From IMG/VR virus record IMGVR_UViG_3300042509_001112, positions 1-64,000 of that record: a stretch of DNA of 64,000 bases; one strand, written 5' to 3'. This document shows positions 3,036 through 40,655 of this stretch, piece after piece; the stretch's first letter is position 1, and every line of letters begins with the position of its first letter. The translations under genes were made by a program, and so were the position numbers. The notes beneath the pieces were generated by a model that was not told where the DNA came from, did no database searches, and saw nothing but the letters and a program-made list of their open reading frames with translations. Source of the DNA: a virus.

Positions 3036-3040
3036 AATAA

Positions 3041-3065
3041 AAAGGGGAGTTATTAGCTCCCCTTT
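3041..3065. terminator. Bidirectional intrinsic terminator between convergent gene blocks
   Basis: AAAGGGGAG-TTATTAG-CTCCCCTTT 9-bp stem flanked by A/T runs, between stop codons at 3035 (+) and 3070 (-). Confidence 0.8.
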
Positions 3066-3069
3066 CTTA

Positions 3070-3312: not shown

Positions 3313-3334
3313 AATCTTTAATTTAAAATTGTTA

Positions 3335-3997
3335 TTACTTACCATTATATTCATAATCTAATATCTTACCTACTAGATCAGATCTGTGATTTTCTTTAAG
3401 TTTAATCCACTTAATTCCATCTATTGACTTAGACAGTTCAATAGCATAAGAAAGTCCGTTAAACTCATCCTTTATGTCTTTCTGCTCATTATCACCATTA
3501 ATAATTATCTTACCAGTTTTTCCTAATCTTGTAAGTACAGCTAACATTTCAGCTTTAGTAGTGTTTTGTGCCTCCTCAACAATTAATATATCATCAATAG
3601 TTTTACCTCTAATAAACTGAATAGGTGAAGCTTTAATCTTTTCACTCTTCAATAGAGTATCAATTTCTTCTTTATTAGTACAACACTTATTAAGGTTATC
3701 TAAGAAAGCTTCCATATAAGGATCAAACTTTTCATTTAACTCACCAGGTAAAAAACCTAATGATTTACCTACTTCAATAGCTGCTCTTGTATTCCAAATG
3801 CAATCTACTTGTTTCTTTTTTAAGAAGTCTAGTGCTGTTTGAGCACAGACCAGGGATTTACCTGATCCTGCTCTACCAGTCACTATAACTATTTGATTGT
3901 CTATTATTAATTGTTTAGCTTTCTTTTGTTCTTCATTTAACTGAATAGCATTGATAGCTTTAATTTCATTTTTTCTTGGTCTATTTGGTGTTTTCAT
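3335..3997 (-). CDS. phoH: PhoH-like ATPase
   Basis: GRAGSGKS Walker A, LGFLPG, FIRGKT, EEAQN, GDNEQKD, HRS motifs. Confidence 0.93.
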   Translation of the reverse strand: MKTPNRPRKNEIKAINAIQLNEEQKKAKQLIIDNQIVIVTGRAGSGKSLVCAQTALDFLKKKQVDCIWNTRAAIEVGKSLGFLPGELNEKFDPYMEAFLDNLNKCCTNKEEIDTLLKSEKIKASPIQFIRGKTIDDILIVEEAQNTTKAEMLAVLTRLGKTGKIIINGDNEQKDIKDEFNGLSYAIELSKSIDGIKWIKLKENHRSDLVGKILDYEYNGK

Positions 3998-4003
3998 GAG
4001 ATT

Positions 4004-5875
4004 TTATTTTACTTCACAACCAGCTGCTCCACAAGCTATTTCATCAACTAATGTAGTATTATCATCAGCTTCAATAACTTTAGTAAGATCAATAGAATGA
4101 ACATGTTTAATCATTTCTTCATATTGCTCTTTAGTTATATCTTCAAAAGGAGCTTGTACATAACTACCACCATCATAAGGTAAAACAGATAGACCATTAA
4201 AATAAGATCTATTAATCCACATCCATTCACCTACAGTTTCCCACTCAGTATCTTTTACAGATATAGTAGCAGATATGTTGTGAGTATTTTCACCTGCATT
4301 ATGACCTGGTTTAATCCAAGTTTCATTTAAAAGCTTAACTTTATTAAGTAACTCTAAAGCTGTTTCTTTGTTTCTAATAGTAGCACCTTCAGGAGCTTTA
4401 ATAGGAATTTCTACTACAGCACTATTAGGAATCATCTTATAGTCTTGTACAATCTCAGGATGATTAACACTTAGATACTCATAGATAGCTTCAGATTTAT
4501 TCATTTGCATTCTTCTAATGTAGTAATCATTATGCCAAGCATGAATACCTGAACTTACACCTAATACTAAACTAGTAGTACCAGATGGTTTAATACAAGT
4601 TGTTCTAGCTGCAGAATTAATACCTATATAGTTAGCTACTCGTTTATTAGTTTCAATAACAACTTCTGTAGCTTCTCTAGGACTATACTTAAATACTTCA
4701 TTAGAAGCAATACCAGTCATTCCTATACCTATTAGAGCATCTTTCTCAGTAGTTTTCTTCCAGATAGGTCTTAAGTAATGAAAATCTGTAAAACCTGCTT
4801 GTAATGTACCAAAGAATGCAGCAGCTTGTGCTCTTTCATTATAGTCTTGTTGTGATTCTAAATTTGATACATTAATTTCAGATAAATTACAGAACTGATA
4901 AGGTCTTAATGCAATTTCACAGCAAGGATTAGTACCCCAATCTGGGTTATTAGTAAAATAAATACCTGGTTCTCCACTATTAGATAACTCAATTTTCTTC
5001 CATAAGTTTAAGAAAAATTCTTCTGATATCTTATGTCTTACTAAGACAGCAGAGTTATTAGCTCTACCTCTTTGAGGATTTTGTTCCCACCAATTACCAA
5101 ACTTACAAGTAAGCATAGCTTCATCATCTGCATTAAATAAACAGATTAATGCTGCTCTACGAATACCTCCTGCTAGTACTGAATCAGCTAAGTGACATAC
5201 AATATCATGTACTTCTAATGATGTTAATTTTTCACCATTATTCTTTCTATCAAGAATTCTTTCTATTTCAAATAAACACCTCATAAGGGGCTCAGGCCCA
5301 GGGGCTTTTCCCCCAGCAGTAATAAGTCTTTGTCCTTTAGGTCTAATATCACTAAAATCAAATTTAGGTTTAGTAGTTCTAAGCCCAAAATAACTAGCCA
5401 TAAGATGTCTTACAGCATCAGCCCAACCTTCAATACTATCACCTACAAGATACTTTTGTTCCTTAGTAGGTTTATGTATTTCAGGTAACTTATCAACATG
5501 ATTATTCTGAACAGAATATCCGACACCTGTACCTCCTAATAAGAGAAACATAATTTCACTAAAACTTCTATAGTCATCTATAGGTAAATAACAACAATTA
5601 TAAATTCTAGCTTCATTCTTTTCAATAGCAGGACCAGAAAATTGCATAGCTCTCATACTAGGCAACACTTTCTTATCATATATAAATTTTGATTGATGAA
5701 TAATATCTTCTTTTAAATGAGGATATTTCTTCAACATCATATTTATATACCTGTCTACTACTTCACTATAGGTTTCTCTTCTTCTTAAAGAAGAGTTATA
5801 CTTCGCATATTTGTTAAAAACTACGATGTCACTTAATACTTCAATTGAGGTTTCTTTTTGTTTGTTTTCTATCAT
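4004..5875 (-). CDS. nrdJ: Class II (adenosylcobalamin-dependent) ribonucleotide reductase
   Basis: PSMR, YNCC, GTGVG, GGIRRAA, TNPCCEI, CNLSEIN, TTCIKPSGT, C-terminal CGAAGC; no small subunit gene nearby. Confidence 0.92.
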   Translation of the reverse strand: MIENKQKETSIEVLSDIVVFNKYAKYNSSLRRRETYSEVVDRYINMMLKKYPHLKEDIIHQSKFIYDKKVLPSMRAMQFSGPAIEKNEARIYNCCYLPIDDYRSFSEIMFLLLGGTGVGYSVQNNHVDKLPEIHKPTKEQKYLVGDSIEGWADAVRHLMASYFGLRTTKPKFDFSDIRPKGQRLITAGGKAPGPEPLMRCLFEIERILDRKNNGEKLTSLEVHDIVCHLADSVLAGGIRRAALICLFNADDEAMLTCKFGNWWEQNPQRGRANNSAVLVRHKISEEFFLNLWKKIELSNSGEPGIYFTNNPDWGTNPCCEIALRPYQFCNLSEINVSNLESQQDYNERAQAAAFFGTLQAGFTDFHYLRPIWKKTTEKDALIGIGMTGIASNEVFKYSPREATEVVIETNKRVANYIGINSAARTTCIKPSGTTSLVLGVSSGIHAWHNDYYIRRMQMNKSEAIYEYLSVNHPEIVQDYKMIPNSAVVEIPIKAPEGATIRNKETALELLNKVKLLNETWIKPGHNAGENTHNISATISVKDTEWETVGEWMWINRSYFNGLSVLPYDGGSYVQAPFEDITKEQYEEMIKHVHSIDLTKVIEADDNTTLVDEIACGAAGCEVK

Positions 5876-9551: not shown

Positions 9552-9873
9552 TAACTTCTGTGTAGTTTTCTACATCTTCAGTATGCATTGCTTCTAACCA
9601 CATATTATAGATTTTTCTATAATCTTGATTTTGTATAAACATTTGATAATAACGCCATAATTCGTTATCACCTTGTTCATAAGCAATTATAAACTGATCA
9701 GCAGGAATTTGATCAGGATAACAGTATTCTTCAATCATACTACCTAAAGCATAATCACCATTAATTGCTGCTTCATATTCATTTGAATGTATTCCAAATT
9801 TAAGTTCAACAGCATTTAAAAGTTTCTCAGAATAAAAAATTCTATTCTTGTCTTTTGTATTTATCATATACAC
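9535..9873 (-). CDS. Hypothetical protein
   Basis: 112-aa ORF in tightly packed operon. Confidence 0.55.
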   Translation of the reverse strand: MYMINTKDKNRIFYSEKLLNAVELKFGIHSNEYEAAINGDYALGSMIEEYCYPDQIPADQFIIAYEQGDNELWRYYQMFIQNQDYRKIYNMWLEAMHTEDVENYTEVIEYAE

Positions 9874-10111
9874 TAATATTACTATATTGATTAATTAAAT
9901 AGTCATTTAAATTATCAACAATAGATTCATATTCAAGTTGAATATCTTCTTTATATATGTAACAATCATTTGTTTCATCATAATCAAATATTTCTTCAGA
10001 AGACTTATACTTATCTTTTATAAAGATATCAGCTAAATCTTGAGCTATTGTTAATGAATTTAAAGTGACTTCAACACTTTTAATTGCTTTTTCAGCATAG
10101 TTATTTATCAT
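9842..10111 (-). CDS. Hypothetical protein
   Basis: 89-aa acidic ORF in operon. Confidence 0.55.
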   Translation of the reverse strand: MINNYAEKAIKSVEVTLNSLTIAQDLADIFIKDKYKSSEEIFDYDETNDCYIYKEDIQLEYESIVDNLNDYLINQYSNISVYDKYKRQE

Positions 10112-10688
10112 TTATAGTATAAATTGTTATAATGAGTTTTTGACTTTCATCTGGACTAGGACTATATCTAGTAGGTATTTCTCTAATAAACTCAATAGAA
10201 TCGTCAGCACCTATTATAGTTTTTAAACAATCTAATAATACCTTACGATATATTAAAGCTAGATTATCTAAATCCCAATTGTTACTCCCTATTGGTTTAA
10301 TAAATTTTATATCAACACCTATTGGAAATAATTGTCTAGGTATTACTTTTAAATCTTTTAGATGTTTATAAAAGAACTTTTTAATTTCATAAGCAATTTT
10401 ATTTCTAAGATTATGATTAAGACCTACCCATATGTTTTGTCCAGATATTTTTTTATATCTTGGTTTACCTACACTACGGATATTTTTTAATATTTTTTCA
10501 TTTGTTTCAATATTTATAAGTTCACCTGCTTTATTAAAACTATGCTTATTATTTTGATACTTCTTAGGTATCTTATCTGTCTTCTTATAATAAACAGGTC
10601 TTCTTTTGTTACTAAGAGTTACATATTCTATGTAGTCCTCAATACTTACCTGATAGATTATATCTTTCTCTTCTATTCTGTATCCCAC
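10101..10688 (-). CDS. RusA-like Holliday junction resolvase
   Basis: WDLDNL...KVLLDCL...ADDS acidic catalytic pattern of the RusA family. Confidence 0.65.
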   Translation of the reverse strand: MGYRIEEKDIIYQVSIEDYIEYVTLSNKRRPVYYKKTDKIPKKYQNNKHSFNKAGELINIETNEKILKNIRSVGKPRYKKISGQNIWVGLNHNLRNKIAYEIKKFFYKHLKDLKVIPRQLFPIGVDIKFIKPIGSNNWDLDNLALIYRKVLLDCLKTIIGADDSIEFIREIPTRYSPSPDESQKLIITIYTINDK

Positions 10689-13163: not shown

Positions 13164-14216
13164 TTACTTTAATTTACTTAAATACTCTTGATATAAAGCA
13201 TCAGTCATTTCATCTACTTTAGGTAATTCTATAAATGTACCTGCTCTAGCATTAAATAGAGTACCTATTGCAATATTGTCAATAGATAATCTGTTTTTAA
13301 TAATCTTTAGCATTACAAAATTACTTCTAAAGTCATGAAGTTTATACTTTAGGCATTCTCTCATATCTAATTTCCAAGGATTCATTAGACCAATAACAAC
13401 ATCACTATCGTCATATGGATTTCTAGTATTCTTAAAATCAGATTGTTGAGGTGATATATCAACACCTTTAAGTTTACTACGTTCCACACTAGATAGTGAG
13501 TCATTAAATTGGCTAATATTAAAGAAACTCATACCAAACTGGTTGGACAATTCTACGCAATATTCAGACCACTTATCAATATTTTCCTTAACAGAGAAAC
13601 CTCTCTCTAAGCTCATTAAAGATAAGTGATCTAAAACTACTACGCATTGCCAATTTGGATTATAAGGTTTAAAGCTTACAATCTTTTGTTTCTGTTTACC
13701 TTCATGATCAGTATATGTTTCATAACTAAACTTACCATGTTTCTTACCATGTTCCCACAATGTAAAGTACATTCCAGTAGGGTTCTCTGGTTTAAAATAG
13801 AAGTTTATTCTAGAAAACATTTCTTCCATAAAAGGTATTTCCTTATTAACTATTTCTAGCTCAGATTGAGATAACCTATTCTGACCTAAGCCTTTAATTG
13901 TTTCAGGAGGGATTATAATTCCATATTTGTTGTAAATGATACTACTTAACCAATTACATTGTTTAGTAACTTTATCAATCTCATAAGAGTAATAAAACAC
14001 ATCTAGTTTTATACCTTTCTTATCAGCATCTTGAATAGCATTACTAATCATATAATCACATAAAGTTGTCTTACCAGTACCTGAATTACCACCGATAAGA
14101 GTCTTACACTTTCTTTGTACACCAAATATGTAATTATTCAATCTATTAAAACCATTAGATAGACCTTCATATTTACCTTCTAACCCCTCTTCTATCCTAA
14201 GTTTTAAATCACTCAT
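13164..14216 (-). CDS. dnaB: Replicative DnaB-like helicase
   Basis: GGNSGTGKT, YSYEI, VLDH, ISQFN, DSDVVIGL, KIIKNR. Confidence 0.85.
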   Translation of the reverse strand: MSDLKLRIEEGLEGKYEGLSNGFNRLNNYIFGVQRKCKTLIGGNSGTGKTTLCDYMISNAIQDADKKGIKLDVFYYSYEIDKVTKQCNWLSSIIYNKYGIIIPPETIKGLGQNRLSQSELEIVNKEIPFMEEMFSRINFYFKPENPTGMYFTLWEHGKKHGKFSYETYTDHEGKQKQKIVSFKPYNPNWQCVVVLDHLSLMSLERGFSVKENIDKWSEYCVELSNQFGMSFFNISQFNDSLSSVERSKLKGVDISPQQSDFKNTRNPYDDSDVVIGLMNPWKLDMRECLKYKLHDFRSNFVMLKIIKNRLSIDNIAIGTLFNARAGTFIELPKVDEMTDALYQEYLSKLK

Positions 14217-14225
14217 TCTTTACCT

Positions 14226-14870
14226 CTATACCCCTTCTAAATCATTACTTATTTTATATGTATCTTGATTATCATTAATACCTTGGACATAGGCTTCACA
14301 ATAACCAGATAACATACTAGTTCCATCTTTAATTATAAAGTATGGAGCTAATTTCATTTTATCATAGTTCCTTGCTTTACAATCATTAATATAATTCTTT
14401 GTGGCTTCTAGAATTATATCTTTTGTAAATTGAGGATTATCAATGATAAACTTATTCATTTTATTACTACAATCTTGTATACTACTCCTTACATAAAAAC
14501 CACCTGACTTTATACCTTTAGGAAACAAATCATAATATTCTTCTATCCAAGATACTTTATAAGGTATTAGTTTTTCATTACTAGGAGCACTCTTAACAAA
14601 TTCTTTAAAGATTAATTCTCCTTTAGAAGTTAATCTAAGATTGTTTGAATACAAATCTTCTAGTGATATCTTATTTTCATTTTGAACAATTCTACATATA
14701 AATTGTTTTTGTGTTAAATTACTTATTATATAATTAGTATAGGGTTCTACATCGTGATAATCACAAATAATATCAATATTTTTATTATATAACGAGTATA
14801 ATAAAACATATTCTTGAAAATCTATATTATTATTTAATAAGTTTTTAACTAATAAATGTAATTGACTCAT
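14226..14870 (-). CDS. Putative replication initiator / helicase loader-like protein
   Basis: Directly upstream of helicase; N-terminal winged-helix-like segment (LTSKG) and C-terminal IILEATKNYI..KLAPYFI segment. Confidence 0.45.
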   Translation of the reverse strand: MSQLHLLVKNLLNNNIDFQEYVLLYSLYNKNIDIICDYHDVEPYTNYIISNLTQKQFICRIVQNENKISLEDLYSNNLRLTSKGELIFKEFVKSAPSNEKLIPYKVSWIEEYYDLFPKGIKSGGFYVRSSIQDCSNKMNKFIIDNPQFTKDIILEATKNYINDCKARNYDKMKLAPYFIIKDGTSMLSGYCEAYVQGINDNQDTYKISNDLEGV

Positions 14871-15901
14871 AAATCATCATTATCAACAGATTGTTCAGCT
14901 TCATCATAACTTTCTAGCATATCAAAAAATGGATCATTAGCTGGAGGTTGTTCTACAGGAGTACTATTAACAGGAGTATTTTCAACAACAGCATTATTTA
15001 TCATTGCAGTTAAATAATCATTCATTGCATTAATAGATGTTCCAGTTGTAGAAGATAAATTACCAGTATTTAAGTGTCCAGACTTTAGTTTTATAGTATC
15101 AAATGCACTTTTATACATATTTATCTTTTTTTTATAATCTAAAGCTTTATATTCTTCACCCTCATTATGTGATTTAAAAATACTATTAAAACATTTTGAT
15201 TTATAGTTATAAAAATCATTTCTAGCTTCATCAATAAGATTACCATTTATAATTGATTCTTCAATATCTGATAATTCATTATCAATTTTATCAAGTTTAT
15301 TAGTATGTCTTTCTAAATTACTAGTTAATTTATTCTTTTCATTAAGTAGTTTATGATAATTAGAATCACTTCTTAAAATACATTCTTGAACATTTTTATA
15401 AGTATTTAGTCTAGAAGTATAATCTTGAAAAGTAACTGCTATATTATCTATTAAATTAGATATTTCTGAACTATTAGAATTAAAAAATACAATTGCAAAA
15501 TCAGAATTTTTATCTATTTTAATATCATAATCTTCTTCTAAATAAAAAGGAAAGTGATTATGCATACTATTAAAGTAAAATTCTACTCTTAATTTAGCAT
15601 TAAATATAGGTTGTAGTATATTTCTAATTAGTTCTTCAGCAAGATTATCGTGATTTGTATATGGACTAAAACCATCATTTACATCAACATTTACTAACTT
15701 TAAAGGTACTAAAATAGCTCTTTTATTTTGTGCTAATTTTATAAAATTAGTAATTTGATTGTCTTTTTTATTATCTTTAAAATTGTTATTTAAGTAATAT
15801 TTTATATTACTCATAACTTGAAAGTTTTTGTAAGTGGAATTAATAACTTCCCACACAGCGTTAAAAACAGTTTCTACGTTAGCTTTATTTTTATTATCCA
15901 T
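14867..15901 (-). CDS. Hypothetical protein with coiled coil and acidic tail
   Basis: 344-aa ORF. Confidence 0.6.
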   Translation of the reverse strand: MDNKNKANVETVFNAVWEVINSTYKNFQVMSNIKYYLNNNFKDNKKDNQITNFIKLAQNKRAILVPLKLVNVDVNDGFSPYTNHDNLAEELIRNILQPIFNAKLRVEFYFNSMHNHFPFYLEEDYDIKIDKNSDFAIVFFNSNSSEISNLIDNIAVTFQDYTSRLNTYKNVQECILRSDSNYHKLLNEKNKLTSNLERHTNKLDKIDNELSDIEESIINGNLIDEARNDFYNYKSKCFNSIFKSHNEGEEYKALDYKKKINMYKSAFDTIKLKSGHLNTGNLSSTTGTSINAMNDYLTAMINNAVVENTPVNSTPVEQPPANDPFFDMLESYDEAEQSVDNDDL

Positions 15902-15912
15902 ATTTTTAATTA

Positions 15913-16404
15913 TTATTCATACCAATTATTATAATCATCATAACTTCCTTGATTATAAGATTTTCTAGTTTTAAACATTTTTATTACATTAGTATAATCA
16001 TCAATATCTTCCATATCTGACCATACTATATTATACTTAGTTAATAAAGTATTTTTAATTGCGTTTGTTGTTATAACATCTATAAAATAAAAACTATAAT
16101 TATTTTCTGTAATTATTTTACTTATTGTTTTTAATAACACACCTTGACTTACAAATATCTCAGGAGTTTCTAAATTATATACACAAAAAGATTCAACAGA
16201 TAATAATTTTTGTATAACATTATCTAAACTAACATAATCATTATAAGTGTAATAATTTAGATTAGATGCTACTTGATAAATATTAGAGAATAAAACTGAT
16301 TTGGTATCAGCTTTATTCTCTTCAATTGTACTAACATAATCAATCGTATAATCAAAAGAAGTATTTACAATACTTTTTATATTTTTTTCAATAATTTTTA
16401 CCAT
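15913..16404 (-). CDS. Hypothetical protein
   Basis: 163-aa ORF. Confidence 0.55.
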   Translation of the reverse strand: MVKIIEKNIKSIVNTSFDYTIDYVSTIEENKADTKSVLFSNIYQVASNLNYYTYNDYVSLDNVIQKLLSVESFCVYNLETPEIFVSQGVLLKTISKIITENNYSFYFIDVITTNAIKNTLLTKYNIVWSDMEDIDDYTNVIKMFKTRKSYNQGSYDDYNNWYE

Positions 16405-25551: not shown

Positions 25552-26209
25552 AAATAACTTTTTTAACGTTTTTAATAAGAGTTGGATAATGTTTACCATT
25601 GTATTCTAAATAAACTATATTTGTATTGTTAATTAATTTACCTGTTTTTTTATCTGCGTATTTATGCTTACGAGATATTAGATTAATAACTTTACAAATA
25701 GTATTTTTAGATATAGGTAATTTTTTAGAGTTAACTAATTTAACAAAATCACCTACTCTAATATTTAAATTAGGTTTATGTACTTGTAATACTATTTTAG
25801 GTTCAGTAAATAAATACTCACAATCACTTTCTACAAACCTAAGTTTCTTATTATCAGGTGTTGTTATTACGATTGTATTTCTAGATATACCATCAATTTT
25901 ACATACATAATTTTCTTCTAATTTAAAAGGAAACTCTTTACCTACTAATTTTGATTTAATTTTTCTATAATTAAAAATATTTGCAGATTCTTCAAAATTT
26001 TTAATTTTTACTTTTTTAGAATAATATTTTATTACTGTTGTGTTATCAATAGGAAAACAATTACTCCTATAAATAAGCCTATATGTATTTTTTGATAAAT
26101 CATATATAATATATTCATTATCATCGTTAGGCTTACTAGCTACAATACCGTATACTGGGATAACAGATATTAATTTAACTAGACTTCCGAAAGGTAATGA
26201 CTTTAACAT
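25517..26209 (-). CDS. Hypothetical basic protein, possibly tandem SH3/KOW-like beta domains
   Basis: Repeated short beta-rich units (FGSLVKL, IRVGDFVKL). Confidence 0.5.
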   Translation of the reverse strand: MLKSLPFGSLVKLISVIPVYGIVASKPNDDNEYIIYDLSKNTYRLIYRSNCFPIDNTTVIKYYSKKVKIKNFEESANIFNYRKIKSKLVGKEFPFKLEENYVCKIDGISRNTIVITTPDNKKLRFVESDCEYLFTEPKIVLQVHKPNLNIRVGDFVKLVNSKKLPISKNTICKVINLISRKHKYADKKTGKLINNTNIVYLEYNGKHYPTLIKNVKKVIYDTNSKQTMPF

Positions 26210-26601
26210 TATTTTAATTTTTTAAATTCTTCATAAAGATAATCTATTAAATGAATTTTATGTGGTTTTTTAGTATACATAGTATTAATTGCCCAGTTTA
26301 AATGAGATCCATACCAATTATCTTTTTCTCCTAATTTAAAAAAAGTTTTATAAATTTTTTCAGATAAATGTAATAAACAAAATTCAAACCAATGAATATT
26401 AATTAAAATACATCTACCTGTTTTTATTGTATCATCTGAAAAAGACAATATATTACCAAAGTTTGGAGTATCAGACCAATTGTCTGTAAAATATTCATCT
26501 GTATTAAATGTAAATTTTATTTCTTTATATTCAGGAAATAATGTTTTACACATTTCTAATAATTTAGATTTGTGCTTTTCTGTTAATGCTAATGGTTTCA
26601 T
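26209..26601 (-). CDS. Hypothetical protein, paralog of 28529..28846
   Basis: LTEKHKSKLLEMCKTLFP...IHWFEFC...LYEEFKKLK shared with 28529..28846. Confidence 0.7.
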   Translation of the reverse strand: MKPLALTEKHKSKLLEMCKTLFPEYKEIKFTFNTDEYFTDNWSDTPNFGNILSFSDDTIKTGRCILINIHWFEFCLLHLSEKIYKTFFKLGEKDNWYGSHLNWAINTMYTKKPHKIHLIDYLYEEFKKLK

Positions 26602-26602
26602 T

Positions 26603-28519
26603 TTAAAATAAAGTTAATTGTGGATCAAGTATTGTATCTATTTCTTTCTGAGCTTCTTTAATATAAAATTGATAGTTTATATCATACTCATTCATTTGCT
26701 TCTCTATAAAGTCATTAAATATGGTTACTTGATAACCTTTATTAATAACTTCAGATGTGCCTTTAGAATAATATTTTATAAAGTTTGCTCCTTTATTAGA
26801 TATATAATATCTAACATTCTTTTGTTGCTTTTCAACTAATTCTACAGCTATACCATCTTTATAACCTAAATAATGTATTTGACCATAACTATCTCTACCA
26901 AATTTCTGTCTACCACAAAAATCATATATATTAGTATGATTCATAATAGTATTTCTAATAGGTATATTATTTACAAAGAATTGACTTAAAGCATAAGGTA
27001 TAATTCTAAAACTATTATCTTTATGATAAGCAGGTTCAGAACCAACTACTTTATCTACTTCAAATGCACCTTTATATTTAACTTTACCTTTAGTAGTTAC
27101 AGCCAAATAATTATTTACATCTCTAATTACCATCTTAGAATACTCTACATATTCTAATTGTAATTTAGTTTGTTGTTCCCAATTCTTACAAATGTTGTAG
27201 TATGCATTAATACTGTGTTGATTATTAGGTATTTTGAGAGTAATACCGTCAGTATTAATTTGCAATACAGTCATATCTTTAATTCTATCAACTAATTCTT
27301 CTGCTAACATAGTTAGTAATAGTTGACCATTAAGAGTTATACACATTGTAAATTTAGGATCATATAAGAAACTATTAATATCATTAGATTTACCATAAGT
27401 ACTATTAGAAGATAATTTCATTGCATCAGCAATAGAATTATTGCCTTCTTTTTTAGCTAAAGCTCTTAATATTGTTAATTTTTCATAAACATCCACAAAA
27501 ACATCTCCTAAATGTTCAGGATAAAATCTATTAGTTATTGCTAATCTGGGGTACATTTGTGCTACATCTGCATCAATTATAATATAATCTTCATCAGATT
27601 CATATACACCAGGTTTAATACAAGCATGAATACCACCAGTACCATAGTCATATTTAAAACCTTTATATATTACTGATTCACTAATACTACCTTTAGTTTC
27701 TCTAATAACTTTACTTTTTAACTTATTAAGTAATTTATTAAAGTCATCAGATTTAAACTTAATATAAGGTAATATACATTCATTAAGATTAATAGAATCT
27801 CTATGAGTACGCATCTGTTTAATATCCCAAGGATTTGTTTTAGTCTTATTAGTATATAGTTTAAGAATAAGTTGTTCACCTATTTTACTATCTGACCAAT
27901 TAATACAAGGAATATCAAATTGAGTTATTAATGATTTGCGTAGCTCTATCTTAGGAAGAGAATTAGTATAAAATCTATAAGTTGCTAATACATCGTTAAG
28001 ATTATATTCAAGTATAGGAGTAATCTCATCAAAAGAAATATCAGTTCTTTTGTGATCAATTGGCATTTCCATAACATTAGGATAATTCATACTTATCTCT
28101 AATGCTTTTAGACTTGTACTACGAGCTTTGTTGTTATAATGCCATATTTTAAATAAGTCTAATTGGGGTATTAATACTTCACGTTCTTTAATAGATACAC
28201 TTGTTACAAAGTTTTTCTGATTCTGTTCTTCAATAATACTTGTAGCTTTATCATGTATTTCTTTAATGATAAACTCTCTACTAGAATCTTTATTAATAGA
28301 TTTAAGTATAAAATGAATAACAGGATAATCAAAGTTAACATTGTTAAATCCAATATGTCCTTTACAAGATTTAAGATGCATTATAAGACTATTATAATCC
28401 CACCTATCTTTGTGAAGAACATATTGGACTATTTCTTCAGTATCAATATTAAAAGCTGTATAAGTAAAGCAACTAGCTAATGTTTCTATATCATATACCC
28501 ATACACTTCTATTTTGCAT
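26603..28519 (-). CDS. Family B DNA polymerase
   Basis: YDIETL, GFNNVNFDY, YNLNDV (Exo I-III); DADVAQMYP (A), KLSSNSTYGK (B), NTDG (C), KYKG. Confidence 0.9.
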   Translation of the reverse strand: MQNRSVWVYDIETLASCFTYTAFNIDTEEIVQYVLHKDRWDYNSLIMHLKSCKGHIGFNNVNFDYPVIHFILKSINKDSSREFIIKEIHDKATSIIEEQNQKNFVTSVSIKEREVLIPQLDLFKIWHYNNKARSTSLKALEISMNYPNVMEMPIDHKRTDISFDEITPILEYNLNDVLATYRFYTNSLPKIELRKSLITQFDIPCINWSDSKIGEQLILKLYTNKTKTNPWDIKQMRTHRDSINLNECILPYIKFKSDDFNKLLNKLKSKVIRETKGSISESVIYKGFKYDYGTGGIHACIKPGVYESDEDYIIIDADVAQMYPRLAITNRFYPEHLGDVFVDVYEKLTILRALAKKEGNNSIADAMKLSSNSTYGKSNDINSFLYDPKFTMCITLNGQLLLTMLAEELVDRIKDMTVLQINTDGITLKIPNNQHSINAYYNICKNWEQQTKLQLEYVEYSKMVIRDVNNYLAVTTKGKVKYKGAFEVDKVVGSEPAYHKDNSFRIIPYALSQFFVNNIPIRNTIMNHTNIYDFCGRQKFGRDSYGQIHYLGYKDGIAVELVEKQQKNVRYYISNKGANFIKYYSKGTSEVINKGYQVTIFNDFIEKQMNEYDINYQFYIKEAQKEIDTILDPQLTLF

Positions 28520-28528
28520 TAAATTTAT

Positions 28529-28846
28529 TTATTTTAATTTTTTAAATTCTTCATATAGAAAATTTATTGGGTGTGATTCATACCAACTATCTGTTAATTT
28601 ACTAAAAAATTCATATTCTAAAACATCTGACTTGTTTAAATTAGAAGCTACTATTAAAATTTGATTTTGTAAATGTGTCATACAAAACTCAAACCAATGA
28701 ATAAATGTTAAAAATTCATCTGTTTCTTCATTTAGAAATCTTAAGTCTTCTGTAAAAAATTCAAATTTACAATGTTTAGGAAATAACTTATTACACATCT
28801 CCAATAACTTCTTCTTATGTTCTTCTGTTAGTTCTATTGCTTTCAT
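28529..28846 (-). CDS. Hypothetical protein, paralog of 26209..26601
   Basis: LTEEHKKKLLEMCNKLFP...IHWFEFC...LYEEFKKLK. Confidence 0.7.
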   Translation of the reverse strand: MKAIELTEEHKKKLLEMCNKLFPKHCKFEFFTEDLRFLNEETDEFLTFIHWFEFCMTHLQNQILIVASNLNKSDVLEYEFFSKLTDSWYESHPINFLYEEFKKLK

Positions 28847-28853
28847 ATATTTA

Positions 28854-29066
28854 TCATGTTACAATGTCTACTCGATGGCTAAATTGTTTTAATAAACTAT
28901 CTAAACATTCAAAACAAGCTTCATTAGCATCTATTTTATTTAACCATTTGGCTCTAAATAGTTCTACATAATTCATTACAGCTTTCTTATGTTTAATAGT
29001 ATTGTTAGGATTACTAATAACATTAACTGTTTTAGTATAATCTTTTAAGAATTGGGGATTACTCAT
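28854..29066 (-). CDS. Hypothetical protein
   Basis: 70-aa ORF coupled to neighbour. Confidence 0.5.
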   Translation of the reverse strand: MSNPQFLKDYTKTVNVISNPNNTIKHKKAVMNYVELFRAKWLNKIDANEACFECLDSLLKQFSHRVDIVT

Positions 29067-29343
29067 TTATTTCAGTTTTAGATTCTTCTTTACTTAAATA
29101 TCTTTCCATAGCCTTTTGAAATACTAAAGGTCTATATACTTCATATAAAGCTTCTTTATCTGTTTTAGATAACTTAATTGTTTTATTATATACATCTTTA
29201 GCAAATTGATCTAATTCTTCAAAAGATAGTTTTTTATATTCTTCAAGTTTACTAATATATCTGTTTGCTATTTTAGTTTGTTGAGAACTTTTAAATAATT
29301 GTTTTAAAACACGTTTTTGGTGTCTATTTTGTGATTGAGCCAT
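29059..29343 (-). CDS. Hypothetical protein
   Basis: 94-aa ORF. Confidence 0.55.
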   Translation of the reverse strand: MAQSQNRHQKRVLKQLFKSSQQTKIANRYISKLEEYKKLSFEELDQFAKDVYNKTIKLSKTDKEALYEVYRPLVFQKAMERYLSKEESKTEINE

Positions 29344-29414
29344 AGGTTTATTTTGGGTTTAGTTTGTTGTGTATGCGAAATGAAGTAGCGGGTAGCGGGG
29401 AGTTATCGGCAACC

Positions 29415-29660
29415 CTAAACGACATCCAAGTATTGAGATTCATAATAACATTTAGCTGCATCTTGTTCATCAATAGGGCAAACCTCTAATTCGTAAATTG
29501 AACAGAATGCTTCCATATATGCCAACTCTATTTGCTCTCTTTCTTTTTCAAGGGCTTGTTTAAGCATTCCGTGAAATACCTTCATAGATATTTCTACGCC
29601 ATTGTTAAAATCCATTTCAACAATATCAATCATTTCCTGTGCTGCGGTTTTGTTTTTCAT
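29415..29660 (-). CDS. Hypothetical protein carried in the cassette (KxTA...EQI..A...YY family)
   Basis: MKNKTAAQEM...EKEREQIELAY...AKCYYESQY resembles 31112..31315 and 31296..31508. Confidence 0.6.
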   Translation of the reverse strand: MKNKTAAQEMIDIVEMDFNNGVEISMKVFHGMLKQALEKEREQIELAYMEAFCSIYELEVCPIDEQDAAKCYYESQYLDVV

Positions 29661-29744
29661 TTTTAAGTGTTTTATTTTGTTGTTAATCAATTATTTAATA
29701 TTTGTTTCCCTTATTGATAAGGTGAACATTCCGAAAGAAGGGCA

Positions 29745-29824
29745 GCCGATAACAGCAGTTTGGCGCAATAGCCGCCACGCTGCAAGCCAACCCTTCGGCT
29801 ACTGTCGCCAAGCTGCAACACGTT
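29745..29824 (+). repeat. attC-like imperfect inverted repeat
   Basis: GCCGATAAC-A-GCAGTTTGGCG-CAATAGCCG...CGGCTACTG-T-CGCCAAGCTGC-AACAC-GTT; long stem with an unpaired T; GC-rich in an AT-rich genome. Confidence 0.7.
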
Positions 29825-30039
29825 CAATCCCCCTCCTCATCATTTATCCGCTTAACTTTTGTATTACTAATTTTTAAGTATTCTATAATATCATTAACAT
29901 TTTTATGTTTGATAATATCTTTGTTATTAACTCCGTTAAAATAGTCATTTGAGCATTCTCTAGGAAAACCTGCCCATGTTTCAGTATATGGATTATAATG
30001 AAATACATATCCTTGTAGGAATTCTGCTTGTTTAGTCAT
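29824..30039 (-). CDS. Hypothetical protein
   Basis: 71-aa ORF with FHYNPYTETW motif; its stop codon overlaps the terminal GTT of the attC-like site. Confidence 0.6.
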   Translation of the reverse strand: MTKQAEFLQGYVFHYNPYTETWAGFPRECSNDYFNGVNNKDIIKHKNVNDIIEYLKISNTKVKRINDEEGD

Positions 30040-30040
30040 T

Positions 30041-30715
30041 TTATTTAGTTATTGATTTAATTGTATATTGAAATGGATTACCTTCAATATTTTGTATAAG
30101 ATTTAGCATTTGTTGTGCAATTTCTCTAATTTCAACTTGAGCATGTTCACTATTCCTAAGTTTTAGAAAGTTAGCAAAGCTTCTCATGTTAAACATTACA
30201 TCAGCTTGTATTTGAGAGTTATAAGTTTTAAAGAACCTTGCAGACTCTTTAGCTCTTTTTCTACCAAGAATAGGTGTTAAATCTTCTAGACATTGATGAT
30301 ATAGTTGATTGCTTAATTTTGTGTATTCATTTAATATATCAAACCATTTCATTTCACCTTCATCATACCATCCAAAATTAGTTTCCATATTTTTTTGAAG
30401 ATAAATATCTTTCCAATCTTCAGGTAAATAAAACTTATCTTCTTTCAACTCTTTATACCTAGCACTCTCTGCATTAATAGAGGCCATCCTATGCTTTAAT
30501 AAATGAATGTGTGAAGCAATATCACAATTCACAAGAAAATGCACTGTAGCCTTCTCAAATGGTGTTTCATGACCATTGCTCCATAACATATCTATTAAAG
30601 CAGGTATTCTAGCTTTCTTATCATCTGTTAATTCTCTAGATGTACTAGTCCATGCGCTGCAAGATATTACTTCATCAGAACCATAATAACCTAATAATTC
30701 TACTGTATTATTCAT
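30041..30715 (-). CDS. thyX: Flavin-dependent thymidylate synthase
   Basis: HETPFE, HLLKHR-x7-SARY (RHRx7SxR variant), LRNSEHAQVEIR; start probably MNNTVEL. Confidence 0.9.
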   Translation of the reverse strand: MNNTVELLGYYGSDEVISCSAWTSTSRELTDDKKARIPALIDMLWSNGHETPFEKATVHFLVNCDIASHIHLLKHRMASINAESARYKELKEDKFYLPEDWKDIYLQKNMETNFGWYDEGEMKWFDILNEYTKLSNQLYHQCLEDLTPILGRKRAKESARFFKTYNSQIQADVMFNMRSFANFLKLRNSEHAQVEIREIAQQMLNLIQNIEGNPFQYTIKSITK

Positions 30716-31119
30716 TTTTTTACTATTTCTATTAGTTTCTTTAAACATTCAAGTTCTGCTTCTTCATAAGATTTAAAACCTTGTAAACCTAAAATACCAT
30801 TACCAAAGTCAATGTTATATCTATAACTTTCATCATTCATATCTATATAACTATGTGTTTTTGACTTTAACCATAACCATCTAAATGCGTGTGAATAGGT
30901 TGGCGCTGTGGTTGATTCTTCTAATATTTCTGAATTAATATAACAAACACCTTCATCAACCCCTTCTTTAAATTCTGAGGGTGTGTAAGGGTCTCTAAAT
31001 GCGAAGACATCAGCATATAAAAAAGAACTATCTTCTTTAAATAAACCTAAACAAGGTTCATCAAATCCTAATTCTTTTAAAGCTAATGCTTGTTCGTAGG
31101 GTATAAATTCTTTATTCAT
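30712..31119 (-). CDS. Hypothetical protein (FIPYEQALALKELGF family)
   Basis: MNKEFIPYEQALALKELGF...APT...SYEEAELECL; related to 31508..31786. Confidence 0.6.
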   Translation of the reverse strand: MNKEFIPYEQALALKELGFDEPCLGLFKEDSSFLYADVFAFRDPYTPSEFKEGVDEGVCYINSEILEESTTAPTYSHAFRWLWLKSKTHSYIDMNDESYRYNIDFGNGILGLQGFKSYEEAELECLKKLIEIVKK

Positions 31120-31315
31120 ATTTATTATTATAATATTGTTCACATCTACCTTTATTAGGATCAAATCCTTGTGCTTGCATACCTTCATAACAAGCATCAA
31201 CTATTTGTTGTTTTTGTATTCTTTTAGCTTCTTTAAGAATAGCATACCATGTAAGCTTATCTTTTGGTGTATCCCAAAGCTTTTTAAATAAATAATCAAC
31301 TGCTGTTTCTGTCAT
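31112..31315 (-). CDS. Hypothetical protein (TAV...QI.DA...EQYY family)
   Basis: Paralogous to 31296..31508. Confidence 0.6.
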   Translation of the reverse strand: MTETAVDYLFKKLWDTPKDKLTWYAILKEAKRIQKQQIVDACYEGMQAQGFDPNKGRCEQYYNNKYE

Positions 31316-31508
31316 TGTTATTGTAGGTTTCTTTGTAGTATTGTTCGGCTGTTTTATATGGGTTCATTCTATCGTGCCAAGATTGATTATGAGCATCAAT
31401 TATCTGCTCCTTTTCCATTGCTTTGGCTTGGTCGATAATATCATCACAATTTAAAGTTGTAATACCTTTTATATAAAGTCCTAACCACTCAACTGCTGTT
31501 TGTTTCAT
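31296..31508 (-). CDS. Hypothetical protein (TAV...QI.DA...EQYY family)
   Basis: MKQTAVEWL...EKEQIIDA...AEQYY. Confidence 0.6.
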   Translation of the reverse strand: MKQTAVEWLGLYIKGITTLNCDDIIDQAKAMEKEQIIDAHNQSWHDRMNPYKTAEQYYKETYNNNDRNSS

Positions 31509-32199: not shown

Positions 32200-32862
32200 T
32201 TATTTCTTTTTAAATTGTTCGATAAAATTTCTAAATTGTGCTTGTGGATTTCTATTCCAATCATCTTCATTAATTAAGATGTGCATTTCTAGTTTTTCAA
32301 TCATATCTTCTTGTTGCCATTTAGCACCATACACACAACCTTTTTTAAAAATAATCCTTTCATCTTGATTAAGATATTCCGTTGAATATAAAGAATTATC
32401 AGCAGCTTCTTCAAGTGTTTCTTGTTTAGGTTCTAATTTAGGCATTGCATCTGCCCACATTTTTGCTAACACATTTTTATCCATGTTGGGTAACTCGTCT
32501 AAATAATGAGTTTTGTTAGGTTTTTCTTGTGGAATGATGATTCCATAATTTCCTTTATCATTAAGGTTAAATTTTGGAAACACATTAACTTTAACAGACT
32601 CACAACTTGGATTCTTAACAAACCATTCTAAGAACTCATCATCAATAGCTTGTACACCATCATTTATCAAGTCTTGGTCTGTTGTTAGGATGATTTTTTT
32701 AAAAGTAATATCTTCAAATAGTTTATCAATAAAAGAGTATTTTTCTACACTACCTCCACCTTTGTAAAGAGTGCTCACTTTAATAACCCAATCTCCTTCT
32801 TTAATTTCTTCATCAGAAGTGATAAACAATTCTTTTCCTATTTTGTAGATATTTCTTTCCAT
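32200..32862 (-). CDS. Hypothetical protein
   Basis: ITSDEEIKEGDW...KKIILTTDQDL..DGVQAIDDEFLEWFVKNPSCE. Confidence 0.65.
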   Translation of the reverse strand: MERNIYKIGKELFITSDEEIKEGDWVIKVSTLYKGGGSVEKYSFIDKLFEDITFKKIILTTDQDLINDGVQAIDDEFLEWFVKNPSCESVKVNVFPKFNLNDKGNYGIIIPQEKPNKTHYLDELPNMDKNVLAKMWADAMPKLEPKQETLEEAADNSLYSTEYLNQDERIIFKKGCVYGAKWQQEDMIEKLEMHILINEDDWNRNPQAQFRNFIEQFKKK

Positions 32863-33428
32863 GATGTATTATTTAAAATATGTGTTATACATGATTCACT
32901 TACATTGTATTCTTTTGACAGCTTTTTAGCTGAATACTTATAAGGAATATACTTTTGTCTTATTTCTAAAACTTGTTCTTTTTTTAATAATGAATTTGTA
33001 TTTTGTTCTCCTGAATAAGCTACTCTATACAAATGAAGTTTATTTAATCCGTTTTTAGAAGCGTGTGTATGGTTTTGTGAATTAGTACACCACTCAAGAT
33101 TGTTTATTCTGTTATTTGTTTTATCACAGTCTATATGGTTCACTTGAGGGTAATTACTTGTGTTTGTAATAAATGCTTCTGCAACTAATCTATGTACATA
33201 CTTATTTATTTTTTGATTATTAACTGTGAAACCAATAGTCATGTATCCAAGATTACTTTTAGATTGTTTACATATCTTACCTTTTCTAATATAAGAAACT
33301 CCACTAGGTTTATTTACAATTCTATCTAAAGATTTTACATTTCCGAAATTAGAAACTTGATACAATCCCTCATAATTCTTTATATCTTTCCAAACTTCTG
33401 ATGTTGGTAATATGTGTATGTTTTTCAT
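32838..33428 (-). CDS. NUMOD4-HNH homing endonuclease
   Basis: EVWKDIKNYEGLYQVSNFGNVKS (NUMOD4); VHRLVAEAF...VNHIDCDKTNN..NLEW (HNH); C-terminal HTH. Confidence 0.92.
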   Translation of the reverse strand: MKNIHILPTSEVWKDIKNYEGLYQVSNFGNVKSLDRIVNKPSGVSYIRKGKICKQSKSNLGYMTIGFTVNNQKINKYVHRLVAEAFITNTSNYPQVNHIDCDKTNNRINNLEWCTNSQNHTHASKNGLNKLHLYRVAYSGEQNTNSLLKKEQVLEIRQKYIPYKYSAKKLSKEYNVSESCITHILNNTSWKEISTK

Positions 33429-35094: not shown

Positions 35095-35618
35095 TATTTC
35101 ATATTTTTAAGTTTATAAATATAACTACTATCTTCAGCATATTTACCATCAATAGCTTTTAAATATCTATTTTGTATTTTTATATAATGTTCTAAACACT
35201 CAGTATAAGTATTATATACTCTGTATTTATTACCTTTTTTAATACCTAATAAGTTTTTATTAGTTTTAACTAATTTAGATGTATAATTACCTGATTCTAA
35301 CTTAATTTGAGCTAATGCTACATTAGGTAATACACAACCTAATTCTACTAATTTAACAGTAATAGCACTATCATTTAATTCAACATCTTGAACTTTATTA
35401 GTTTTAATAGTTTTAAATATTTTATAATCATTAGCTGAATTACAAGTAAATACTAATACAGTAATAACTGTTATTACAAGAAATAGTGTAATTGCTGTTA
35501 CAACACTATCATTGTAAGTTTTACATTCATTTTTACATTTTTTACAAATGTATTTGTTGTCTACTACTTGCTTAACATTTTCATAACAACAACTTGATTT
35601 TAAGATTGGATTTTTCAT
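35094..35618 (-). CDS. Membrane-anchored glucosaminidase (GH73-like peptidoglycan hydrolase)
   Basis: Cys-rich N-terminus, one TM helix, then ALAQIKLESG...NKNLLGIK...KYAED. Confidence 0.65.
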   Translation of the reverse strand: MKNPILKSSCCYENVKQVVDNKYICKKCKNECKTYNDSVVTAITLFLVITVITVLVFTCNSANDYKIFKTIKTNKVQDVELNDSAITVKLVELGCVLPNVALAQIKLESGNYTSKLVKTNKNLLGIKKGNKYRVYNTYTECLEHYIKIQNRYLKAIDGKYAEDSSYIYKLKNMK

Positions 35619-35637
35619 ATTATTTTATTTAATAATT

Positions 35638-35728
35638 TGTAGTCAGGACGAGATTTGAACTCGCATCTCCTATACTAATATAGGGCGTTACCAATTGTGG
35701 TATTTATTCCCACTTACGCCACCTGACC
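35638..35728 (-). tRNA. Atypical tRNA-like element 1 (tRNA-Leu-derived scaffold, 19-nt D-loop insert, non-canonical anticodon loop)
   Basis: Acceptor GGTCAGG/CCTGACT, D-stem GCG/CGC, T-arm GCGAG-TTCAAAT-CTCGT; anticodon arm CCTAT-ATTAGT-ATAGG has a 6-nt loop; no encoded CCA. Confidence 0.65.
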
Positions 35729-35901: not shown

Positions 35902-36156
35902 TTATACATTATGTGTTAATTCATCCATTGTTGGTGTGAACCTATACGCAGCTTCTTGAAGAATTGAAAACTGAACCATCATCATACGTTCGTAAGTCTC
36001 TCCACCTGCAATCTTTTGAACCATTTTACACTTTTCCCTTATAATACCTTCCATACGGATAATACCTTGGGGACCATCTTCTTTCATTTCTTGAATTACC
36101 TGAGCCAATTCTTCATCGGACATTTCAGAAAATACTTTTGTTACTTCGTTTACCAT
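35902..36156 (-). CDS. Hypothetical protein bracketed by tRNA-like repeats
   Basis: 84-aa ORF, visibly more CpG than the genome average. Confidence 0.6.
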   Translation of the reverse strand: MVNEVTKVFSEMSDEELAQVIQEMKEDGPQGIIRMEGIIREKCKMVQKIAGGETYERMMMVQFSILQEAAYRFTPTMDELTHNV

Positions 36157-36175
36157 GTTATTTGTTTTTAAATTT

Positions 36176-36337
36176 AGTAGTCAGGACAGGATTCGAACCT
36201 GTATGATAGTAGGGTATGTACACTCCCCATTTGAAGAACTACCTTAAGCGTCTACCAAGTTACATTGACCTCGTAGTGGATTCTAACCACATTATTTTTA
36301 CGTCTAGAACGAGGTTGTAACATTCCGCCACCTGACT
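36176..36337 (-). tRNA. Atypical tRNA-like element 3 (64-nt structured D-loop insert, expanded anticodon region)
   Basis: Acceptor AGTCAGG/CCTGACT, GGCGGAA[64 nt]TTGGTAGACGC, perfect T-arm ACAGG-TTCGAAT-CCTGT. Confidence 0.65.
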
Positions 36338-39745: not shown

Positions 39746-40106
39746 AATTTATGGTTTAAATTGTTGAAAATAAAAAATGGATGTGTTTAACCTACACATC
39801 CGTAGAACCTGCATTGTTTGGTTGATGCCAAAATACAGCTTATATACTCTTTCTCATATCACTTTGCCAGTTTTGAAAGAATGTAAATCTCAGGCTGTTA
39901 AGAATAACAGTATTACTAATGCTCTAATTTCGTTCATTCAGCTGTTGGTTATAAATCAACAGCTCAGTCTTCTACGTTAGTTTGTTTCAACATAAAGAGT
40001 ATCAATCTTTACGTTATACGCTTTTTAGCTCATAGTGGAGCCTGTTTATTTTGAAACATGGTAGGACAGAGCTCACGAAGAGATGTCCTTTAAACCATGC
40101 AATATT

Positions 40107-40316
40107 TTAGAATATACTTGGAACAGCAATCCATTGTAAAGCACGACCTTGATATTCTTTATCAACAATAACATATTGTATTGTATTACCTGCTAGTAAA
40201 CTATTAAAGTGTTTACGAGAGATAAAGTAAGTATCCCATGTATTATCAATATGAATACATACTGAAGCTCTGTTCATACGAATGAGTTGGATTTGGTTTT
40301 TAGATAGTGTTTTCAT
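40107..40316 (-). CDS. Hypothetical protein
   Basis: 69-aa ORF. Confidence 0.5.
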   Translation of the reverse strand: MKTLSKNQIQLIRMNRASVCIHIDNTWDTYFISRKHFNSLLAGNTIQYVIVDKEYQGRALQWIAVPSIF

Positions 40317-40379
40317 TGTGCTATATGTTTAGATGGTTAGTTTTTAGATAGATAGATAAAAAAGTTTTAGTAATGTCCG

Positions 40380-40655
40380 TTAGGACACTACTAAAAACTC
40401 TAACTCTTTAAACTTGCAGACTTGGACAAGACCTGTAAGGTCGTCTAGGTCTGCACCACTCTTAACAGCAAGGCGCCAGCCGCCTGGCATTTGCAAATAG
40501 TAACTATCTTCTTTCTTCCCAGCCGTAGGCTCGGGAAGATTTTCAGGGTTGCTAATTTGCACCAAATCAGTGTACTCCGTTAAACTTACTTTATAACCTG
40601 CAGCTTCAGCAAAGGTTTTAAGTTTTTCAACGGTAGTTGTGGGTAATTTTTTCAT
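40380..40655 (-). CDS. Hypothetical protein, first gene of the leftward block
   Basis: 91-aa ORF, visibly higher GC than neighbours. Confidence 0.55.
   Translation of the reverse strand: MKKLPTTTVEKLKTFAEAAGYKVSLTEYTDLVQISNPENLPEPTAGKKEDSYYLQMPGGWRLAVKSGADLDDLTGLVQVCKFKELEFLVVS

Follow-up and report, generated by a model that had tools for sequence, protein, structure and literature searches.

A likely integron-like gene cassette in a complete freshwater phage genome and related cassettes in Bacteroidota and their phages

Introduction

Is the small ORF that lies between a GC-rich palindrome and a pair of complementary boxes in this phage DNA a mobile gene cassette, and if so, to what kind of exchange system does it belong? 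We addressed this question for the 64,000-nt stretch shown here (hereafter, the window), positions 1 to 64,000 of the IMG/VR record IMGVR_UViG_3300042509_001112. The phage record itself (G000) is a complete virus contig of 97.8 kb with a GC content of 28%, which could be traced to freshwater lakes via sequencing runs. An initial sequence-only reading of the locus had proposed an integron-type cassette in a window devoid of an integrase. Our analysis supports the cassette idea, with the caveat that the system is not the canonical attC/IntI one. We consider it likely that the unit at 29402-29821 represents a mobile cassette with a single gene, and that it belongs to an integron-like system of Bacteroidota and the phages that infect them, in which cassettes would be exchanged by an Xer/IntI-like recombinase.

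Results

Anatomy of the cassette

Genes at 26-33 kb of the window run on the minus strand, and the cassette is described along the same strand. The unit (29402-29821, minus) consists, in this order, of a hairpin, a 14-nt GTTA box, a leader, an ORF and a complementary 14-nt TAAC box. Directly 5' of the hairpin lies the AAC core (29822..29824, minus; GTT on the plus strand), and the upstream boundary is AAC|G. The leading part of the cassette is the GC-rich, imperfect hairpin H (29754..29821, minus; 68 nt). Its predicted fold has five unpaired nucleotides on the 5' side, a stem of about 24 bp interrupted by one bulged A and one C.A mismatch, and a single unpaired nucleotide before the 5' box. 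The initial description of a GC-rich imperfect palindrome ending in a GTT that overlaps the stop codon of the next gene thus held: the GTT at 29822-29824 shares one base with the TGA stop of gene 29824..30039. The base composition sets the element apart, since window positions 29720-29840 form an island of 58-60% GC in DNA of about 25% GC; a second, smaller island is present at 29360-29410.

The 5' box, GTTATCGGCTGCCC (29740..29753, minus), pairs across the ORF with the 3' box, GGGTTGCCGATAAC (29402..29415, minus), at the TAAC| of which the cassette ends. Two exact 9-bp complements enclosing one ORF had been claimed at this place, and the claim not only held but could be extended. GTTATCGGC (29402-29410) and GCCGATAAC (29745-29753) are exact complements and the sole two copies in 64 kb, compared with 0.03 expected; two copies were seen in none of 100 shuffles. 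The complementarity reaches 14 nt (29402-29415 versus 29740-29753), and when the box pair is read on the minus strand 13 of its 14 positions pair, with a T.T mismatch at position 10 and a G.T wobble at position 11. The junction as a whole fits a scheme in which TAAC is separated from the hairpin by about 5 nt, and the hairpin from GTTA by about 1 nt.

An A-rich leader (29661..29739, minus), partly conserved among the type-1 cassettes described below, separates the 5' box from the ATG of the cargo ORF. The ORF (29415..29660, minus) starts at 29660, encodes 81 aa and has a GC content above that of the neighbouring genes; its TAG stop codon (29417-29415) abuts the 3' box. The cargo protein has no Pfam or PHROG match and, used as a query against viral contigs, finds no relative, although homologs of the ORF are present in metagenomes at 72-89% identity. 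Kinship of this ORF to the phage genes 31112..31508, as initially suggested, is not supported (BLASTP E 0.04-0.6). An ORF borne by a cassette in another phage, G001, is related to window gene 31296..31508.

On the other side of the last TAAC, AGCGGGTAGCGGGGA (29387-29401) had been taken for the remnant of another site. This part of the initial interpretation failed, as AGCGGGTAGCGGGGA belongs to a conserved array-end motif, TCCCCGCTACCCGCTAC (29385..29401, minus), composed of two direct repeats of 7 nt immediately adjoining the last TAAC. The motif recurs at array ends in G005, G001 (twice) and G003 (locus L007), with variants in L135, L137 and L067, and is absent before the recombinase gene in the phage contigs L288, L289 and L291. 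It occupies the position that attI has in an integron, but the likeness is one of position only and no function has been shown. The motif is followed by the leader (29344..29384, minus) of the next gene, 29059..29343, which is conserved with L007 and G005 up to the ATG. G003, a 36-kb phage unrelated to the window phage, shares this leader (L007 1207-1248), and the ORF that follows it differs, being 94 aa long in the window and 64 aa in G003. A conserved leader in front of differing ORFs might represent another kind of exchange boundary.

Copies with other cargo and covariation of the boxes

If the hairpin and the boxes are the frame of a mobile unit, the same frame is expected around other genes; the sequence-only reading would have been refuted had the palindrome no homologs flanking unrelated ORFs. 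Such homologs were looked for and found, so this refutation does not apply. The hairpin together with the boxes is present at 87-97% identity in five other IMG/VR contigs (L005, L067, L069, L010 and L064, the viral contigs with the type-1 frame) and at 24 metagenome loci. In all, there are about 27 distinct copies besides that of the window, residing in phage or metagenome contigs and each having its own cargo; the enclosed ORFs are unrelated and 72-128 aa or more in length. One of the carriers, the contig of L005 (G001), was found via an exact piece of the hairpin. It is a complete phage of 35 kb with terminal repeats and 39% GC, in which a hairpin 97% identical to that of the window and both boxes enclose a different ORF of 72 aa. 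BLAST searches against GenBank phages with the hairpin and with its 3-kb neighbourhood revealed no copy of the element.

The boxes covary. Examples include the pairs GTTATAAGCCGTTT/AAATGGCTTATAAC, GTTATGCTTCGTAA/TTATGAGGCATAAC and GTTATACGCTGCCC/GGGTTGCGTATAAC, and a further one is GTTATACGC.../...GCGTATAAC. A partner box with at least 13 of 14 pairs accompanies 16 of 22 distinct copies, as opposed to 0 of 440 shuffles. Across a set of 43 cassettes, several Watson-Crick pair types occur at positions 5-10 and 12-14; position 5, for instance, has 23 T, 12 G, 5 A and 3 C, and positions 6-7 vary as well. Since GTTA, TAAC and G.T at position 11 were required for inclusion in this set, it is no test of those features. 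A less restrictive search asked only for GTTA/TAAC ends and at least 13 of 14 pairs, and in every box pair read from it position 11 was G.T, with the G in the 5' box. All box searches required TAAC/GTTA, and the claim that these ends are conserved rests on the type-1 copies retrieved by the hairpin.

Two side observations concern unusual units. In L005 (G001), positions 9839-9886 and 10277-10324 contain apparent cargo-less units between cassettes, in each of which the 5' and 3' boxes are separated only by a loop of 4-13 nt and form a simple hairpin; these might be empty cassettes or scars. In the L007 (G003) cassette at 207-1191, the reading frame for a protein of about 290 aa begins within the site, the 3' arm of the hairpin and the 5' box specifying its N-terminus, so that here the site sequence is also coding. 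From reading its translation, without a check against family libraries, we take this protein to be PAPS-reductase-like.

Unit boundaries, arrays and turnover

Comparison of identical cassettes in different contexts shows that the element is a discrete unit with definable boundaries. A stretch of about 530 nt that starts at TAAC|GGTAGG and finishes at GATAAC| is 100% identical in L141 and L010, which are unrelated outside both ends; L138 and L147 likewise share an identical cassette in different contexts. The 3' breaks fall directly after TAAC, and identical cassettes break at TAAC|G. Some of the 5' breaks sit 12-17 nt inside the hairpin (L147; L143 versus L145), the difference between L143 and L145 being confined to the region upstream of the hairpin. 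Such internal breaks are a sign that some homologous recombination or template switching takes place as well.

The units also occur in tandem. Junctions in which 5 nt lie between TAAC and the hairpin and 1 nt between the hairpin and GTTA are found in G002, G003, L137 and others, with the 3' box of one cassette followed directly by the hairpin of the next. Array stems are 15-28 bp long, and their sequences vary while the shape stays constant. ORFs in arrays start after the 5' box or within the hairpin loop, their stop codons abut or overlap the 3' box, and a short direct repeat, TAACG(G/T)T, borders every array cassette. The complete 100-kb phage G002 (contig of L067) has three separate arrays, at 2674-4463, 13692-16009 and 99009-99819, two of which end in the motif TAAC|TCATCGCTAAG. 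The array at 13692-16009, as read in L067, is followed by an intrinsic terminator together with a promoter of the Bacteroidota type (TTTG ... TAtaTTTG).

The genome of the window phage itself has only one convincing cassette and no tandem array. A second GTTA/TAAC box pair on the minus strand (39897-40466), which has 13 of 14 positions paired and G.T at position 11 and follows a GC-rich stretch, was set aside as probably due to chance because it lies inside an ordinary 91-aa ORF and lacks a proper hairpin junction.

Replacement of the unit is shown by a relative of the window phage. G005 is 97 kb long, and its genes flanking the locus are 93-94% identical to those of the window. The homology reaches no further than the AAC core at one end and TAGCGGGTAGCGGG(G/T)A|GTTA at the other, and between the AAC core and the array-end motif G005 has at least two different cassettes. 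A lack of precise presence or absence in relatives had been named beforehand as a refuting observation; G005 offers replacement whose ends fall precisely at the GTT/AAC cores, so this refutation does not apply either. Contigs from four lake metagenomes provide a further view of the locus. There, the flanks 29340-29447 and 29718-29879 are covered at 10-60 times the depth of neighbouring genes, and the cargo ORF is missing from two of the four runs. In one lake metagenome contig, the window cassette, at 97% identity, is followed by another cassette. One short contig (run X11) joins 29405 to 29824 with only 20 nt on the shorter side, which might be a weak hint of an empty site but is not proof.

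Fold and strand

The element folds preferentially on one strand. Its predicted fold energy is -53.4 kcal/mol for the minus strand (z -4.0) and -35.3 kcal/mol for the plus strand. The rebuilt 96-nt site, computed with DNA parameters, is predicted to be a single hairpin of -30.6 kcal/mol, versus -24.1 kcal/mol on the other strand. The same tendency is seen for the inter-cassette sites, as the strand with the G.T (the folding strand) is more stable in 25 of 28. The relation of the genes to this strand differs between phages and chromosomes. According to the sequence-only reading, the ORF is antiparallel to the site, and this held: like the window cassette, phage cassettes as a rule have their ORF on the folding strand (35 of 46). 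In chromosomal cassettes, the ORF lies opposite the folding strand in 40 of 62 cases and on it in only 4. Because the ORF orientation is reversed between the two groups, the structure is kept whichever strand is transcribed. The strand specificity of the predicted fold is shown here, and its independence of the transcribed strand favours a single-stranded DNA substrate, as in integrons, over a role in mRNA; the single-stranded substrate itself is inferred. Searches of Rfam, both at the gathering threshold and at E<=10, returned nothing relevant, and no terminator-like tail was found at the element. A promoter scan gave only weak sigma-70-type matches, the sigma-70 model being unsuited to Bacteroidota promoters.

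Recombinases are absent from the tested phage records but linked to arrays elsewhere

The claim that the window has no integrase held, as no PF00589 match was found in G000. More broadly, no PF00589 tyrosine recombinase is present in G000 and seven other cassette-bearing phage records, four of these eight being complete, and neither serine recombinases nor Y1 transposases (PF01797) were detected in the five of these eight records searched for them. All-against-all BLASTP of G000-G004 identified only one small-protein family in at least three genomes, and G000-G003 have no protein in common at E<1e-4 except one small-protein family.

We also looked for relatives of the system in cellular genomes. 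The exact 24-nt pattern of the type-1 hairpin gave 0 matches in a collection with one genome for each of 185,579 prokaryote species, and a looser junction pattern was needed. This degenerate pattern gave matches at over 120 loci in genomes. Bacteroidota account for 69 of the 80 listed, whereas matches due to chance would spread over all phyla. By manual tally, at least two box pairs are present at 31 chromosomal loci. Many chromosomal loci hold arrays with sites of about 119 nt; in L208, L270 and L271 there are about 114-122 nt between cassettes.

The commonest neighbour family at the chromosomal loci is a tyrosine recombinase having PF00589 and PF13495 (N-terminal SAM-like domain). Its gene is included in only 11 of the 120 chromosomal segments of 8 kb, and six of these 11 contain a cassette too. 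The linked recombinases are 256-280 aa long and have NF040815 as their best NCBIfam match. Against TIGR02249 (integron integrase) they score 137-209 bits, below the cut-off of 265, and most of them match this profile in two pieces that skip positions of about 180-237. We read the skipped positions as the absence of the IntI-specific insertion, an inference based on sequence alone. The link between arrays and the recombinase is shown in phages too. In the phage contigs L288, L289 and L291, 3-7 cassettes showing the G.T-11 signature are directly followed, on the same strand, by the gene for a homolog of 256-270 aa that is 40-44% identical to the chromosomal query. The earlier inference of a host or phage tyrosine recombinase fits these arrays, which adjoin an Xer/IntI-like recombinase both in Bacteroidota chromosomes and in other phages. 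As a separate observation, in L242 (3582-4720; Ferruginibacter MAG) and L191 (5700-7663; Arundinibacter roseus) the recombinase gene is 0.4-2 kb from the first cassette, and the cassette genes are oriented as in canonical integrons, the reverse of the phage arrangement.

Discussion

Comparison with known systems

The closest parallel is with integrons. Both systems have single-gene promoterless units in tandem arrays that may occur without an integrase, and in both an imperfect palindrome, folded on only one of the strands, serves as the site and has inner AAC...GTT cores, with the unit boundary at the core. As in integrons, the first bases of the cassette are complementary to the far arm of the site, so that a circle would rebuild it, and a tyrosine recombinase of the IntI/Xer clade lies at one array end in relatives. 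There are, however, differences. Integron boxes are RYYYAAC/GTTRRRY and 7 bp long, whereas here they are nnnTAAC/GTTAnnn and 14 bp long (GTTATCG in the window). Other features that integrons do not have are the invariant G.T at position 11, often next to a T.T at position 10, a junction loop of 5 nt versus 1 nt, and a linked recombinase of 256-280 aa without the IntI-specific insertion; the window phage has no IntI. Also unlike in integrons, phage ORFs are on the folding (bottom-like) strand and the recombinase is encoded downstream on the same strand, although chromosomal relatives do show the canonical ORF orientation in 40 of 62 cassettes. In the predicted fold of the site there are a bulged A, a C.A mismatch and a T.T mismatch, which may or may not be equivalent to the extrahelical bases of attC. 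Taken together, the element is likely an integron-like variant and not a canonical integron. So far as observed, the system is confined to Bacteroidota and their phages, and a full-text literature search did not reveal any description of such a Bacteroidota/phage cassette system.

Sites of the attC type do occur in virulent phages. Qi et al. 2023 (PMC9892861) reported that IntI1 recombined five attC sites from three virulent phages, one of the recombined sites being from a Polaribacter (Bacteroidota) phage. We inspected Polaribacter phage P12002L, for which a CALIN has been reported, and observed no GC-rich islands between genes and no box pairs above chance; its CALIN therefore differs from the window element. 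According to IntegronFinder 2.0 (PMC9024848), complete integrons are rare in Bacteroidetes.

The nearest recombinase-free analogue is known from T4-type phages, in the form of the PeSL (promoter-early stem-loop) cassettes (Arbiol et al. 2010, PMC2839356). In those phages too, small accessory ORFs are bracketed by conserved stem-loops, and related phages differ by insertion or replacement of units. PeSLs, however, are modules of a promoter and a terminator that act through homology, and they have neither long-range covarying pairing across the ORF nor a TAAC/GTTA core or a linked recombinase. The dif/pdif modules and IMEXs resemble the present system in their dependence on tyrosine recombinases of the Xer family, which the host often provides in trans, but Xer sites are double-stranded, 28 bp long and organised as 11-6-11, whereas here the sites are strand-specific hairpins of 40-120 nt with a split, cassette-specific arm. 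Elements of the IS200/IS605 type have subterminal hairpins at both ends and a Y1 transposase; the window element has one hairpin, and five phage records gave no PF01797 match.

Proposed mechanism and alternative explanations

In the mechanism that we propose, the 3' box of an excised circle would abut hairpin H and pair with the 5' box, and the site rebuilt in this way would be one imperfect hairpin of 96 nt with TAAC/GTTA at its inner end. Its layout would be that of the folded bottom strand of an integron attC, with crossover at AA|C. A short Xer/IntI-like tyrosine recombinase would recognise the folded single strand and exchange cassettes at the core. The window cassette would then be an orphan in a phage without a recombinase of its own, delivered and possibly removed in trans by an enzyme from the host chromosome or from a co-infecting phage; action in trans must be assumed because no recombinase was found in the cassette-bearing phage records tested. 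Catalysis by the Xer-like recombinase, the single-stranded substrate, the circular intermediate and the action in trans are all inferred, and no recombination has been observed directly. Also counting against the mechanism are the 5' breaks inside the hairpin, the lack of an exact type-1 match in the prokaryote genome collection, the small share of chromosomal loci that include the recombinase and the missing array-end motif beside the recombinase-bearing arrays of phages.

It could be argued that no dedicated recombinase is needed at all, and that cassettes are exchanged by homologous recombination or template switching between hairpins of co-infecting phages, as proposed for PeSL, the folded junction merely bringing TAACG direct repeats together. 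In favour of this explanation are the PeSL precedent (PMC2839356), the absence of recombinases of the searched classes from the tested phage records, the chimeric hairpin 5' ends in L147 and in L143 versus L145, and the TAACG(G/T)T direct repeat around each array cassette. It leaves unexplained, however, the covarying 14-bp helix, the invariant G.T at position 11 and the constant GTTA/TAAC core, as well as the strand-specific fold that is independent of the coding strand and the repeated adjacency of IntI-like recombinases in chromosomes and phages; the 3' breaks right after TAAC also speak against it. We regard it as unlikely. A role in mRNA has still less in its favour. The structure might, for example, form a stem at the close of each cistron that helps to process or stabilise the transcript, and mobility would be a by-product. 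In phages the folding strand is indeed the coding strand and folds much better than its complement, the wobbles are compatible with G.U, and the leader is partly conserved. Yet chromosomal ORFs are opposite the folding strand (40 of 62, versus 4), where the structure cannot be in the mRNA; there is neither an Rfam match nor a terminator-like tail, and identical units in different contexts would have no explanation. This makes the mRNA explanation very unlikely.

Equally hard to sustain is the view that the element is a canonical attC cassette, a CALIN like those in virulent phages, moved by classical IntI. The inner AAC...GTT cores, the palindromic fold of a single strand, the 5' end complementary to the cassette's own site and the activity of IntI1 on attC sites of virulent phages (PMC9892861) would all agree with it. 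On the other hand, the 14-bp nnnTAAC/GTTAnnn boxes with G.T at position 11 do not fit RYYYAAC/GTTRRRY, the linked recombinases are below the IntI cut-off and without the IntI insertion, complete integrons are rare in Bacteroidetes (PMC9024848), and P12002L has no such element. Finally, a passenger-carrying derivative of the IS200/IS605 type, inserted 3' of TAAC by a Y1 HUH transposase, would account for an element that follows TAAC, ends in TAAC and has a subterminal hairpin at one end with a strand-specific fold. With no Y1 transposase in five phage records, no second subterminal hairpin and a tyrosine recombinase as the linked enzyme in relatives, this possibility is all but excluded.

We thus return to the integron-like cassette as the preferred reading. 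If the proposed mechanism is correct, integron-type exchange is not limited to IntI-bearing bacteria, and a parallel system with a simpler recombinase operates across a whole phylum and its viruses, including lytic phages of crAss size. It would also offer a concrete route for the fast turnover of small accessory phage genes, and the opposite orientation of genes in phage and host cassettes may show how the two pools stay apart or exchange. In practical terms, cassettes in metagenomes could be annotated by a signature that consists of TAAC, a hairpin and GTTA, together with covarying boxes that have G.T at position 11. It is tempting to go further and to propose that Bacteroidota and virulent phages share a second, undescribed integron lineage with a short Xer-like recombinase and strand-specific hairpin sites, in which the phage and host pools mirror each other, their genes being on opposite strands relative to the site, and lytic phages without a recombinase, such as this one, gain accessory genes from a common pool and return them to it during infection by means of enzymes provided in trans. 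For this bolder proposal, taken as one joint claim, we see about as much reason to doubt as to believe.

Other features of the window

Several features of the surrounding DNA may be mentioned for completeness. No tRNA was called by ARAGORN anywhere in the window. A direct repeat of 50 nt (35611-35660 and 36149-36198, 76% identical) includes the sequence GTAGTCAGGAC..GATT.GAAC, similar to what is found at the 3' end of a tRNA. Two genes upstream of the cassette is a gene for the thymidylate synthase ThyX (30041-30748; PF02511, E 1e-34), and farther on gene 32838..33428 encodes what we take to be an HNH-type homing endonuclease, judging by eye from the translation. The gene for a family-B DNA polymerase (26603..28519) is flanked by two small paralogous genes, at whose 3' ends lies another direct repeat, of 40 nt and 93% identity (26209-26248 and 28529-28568).
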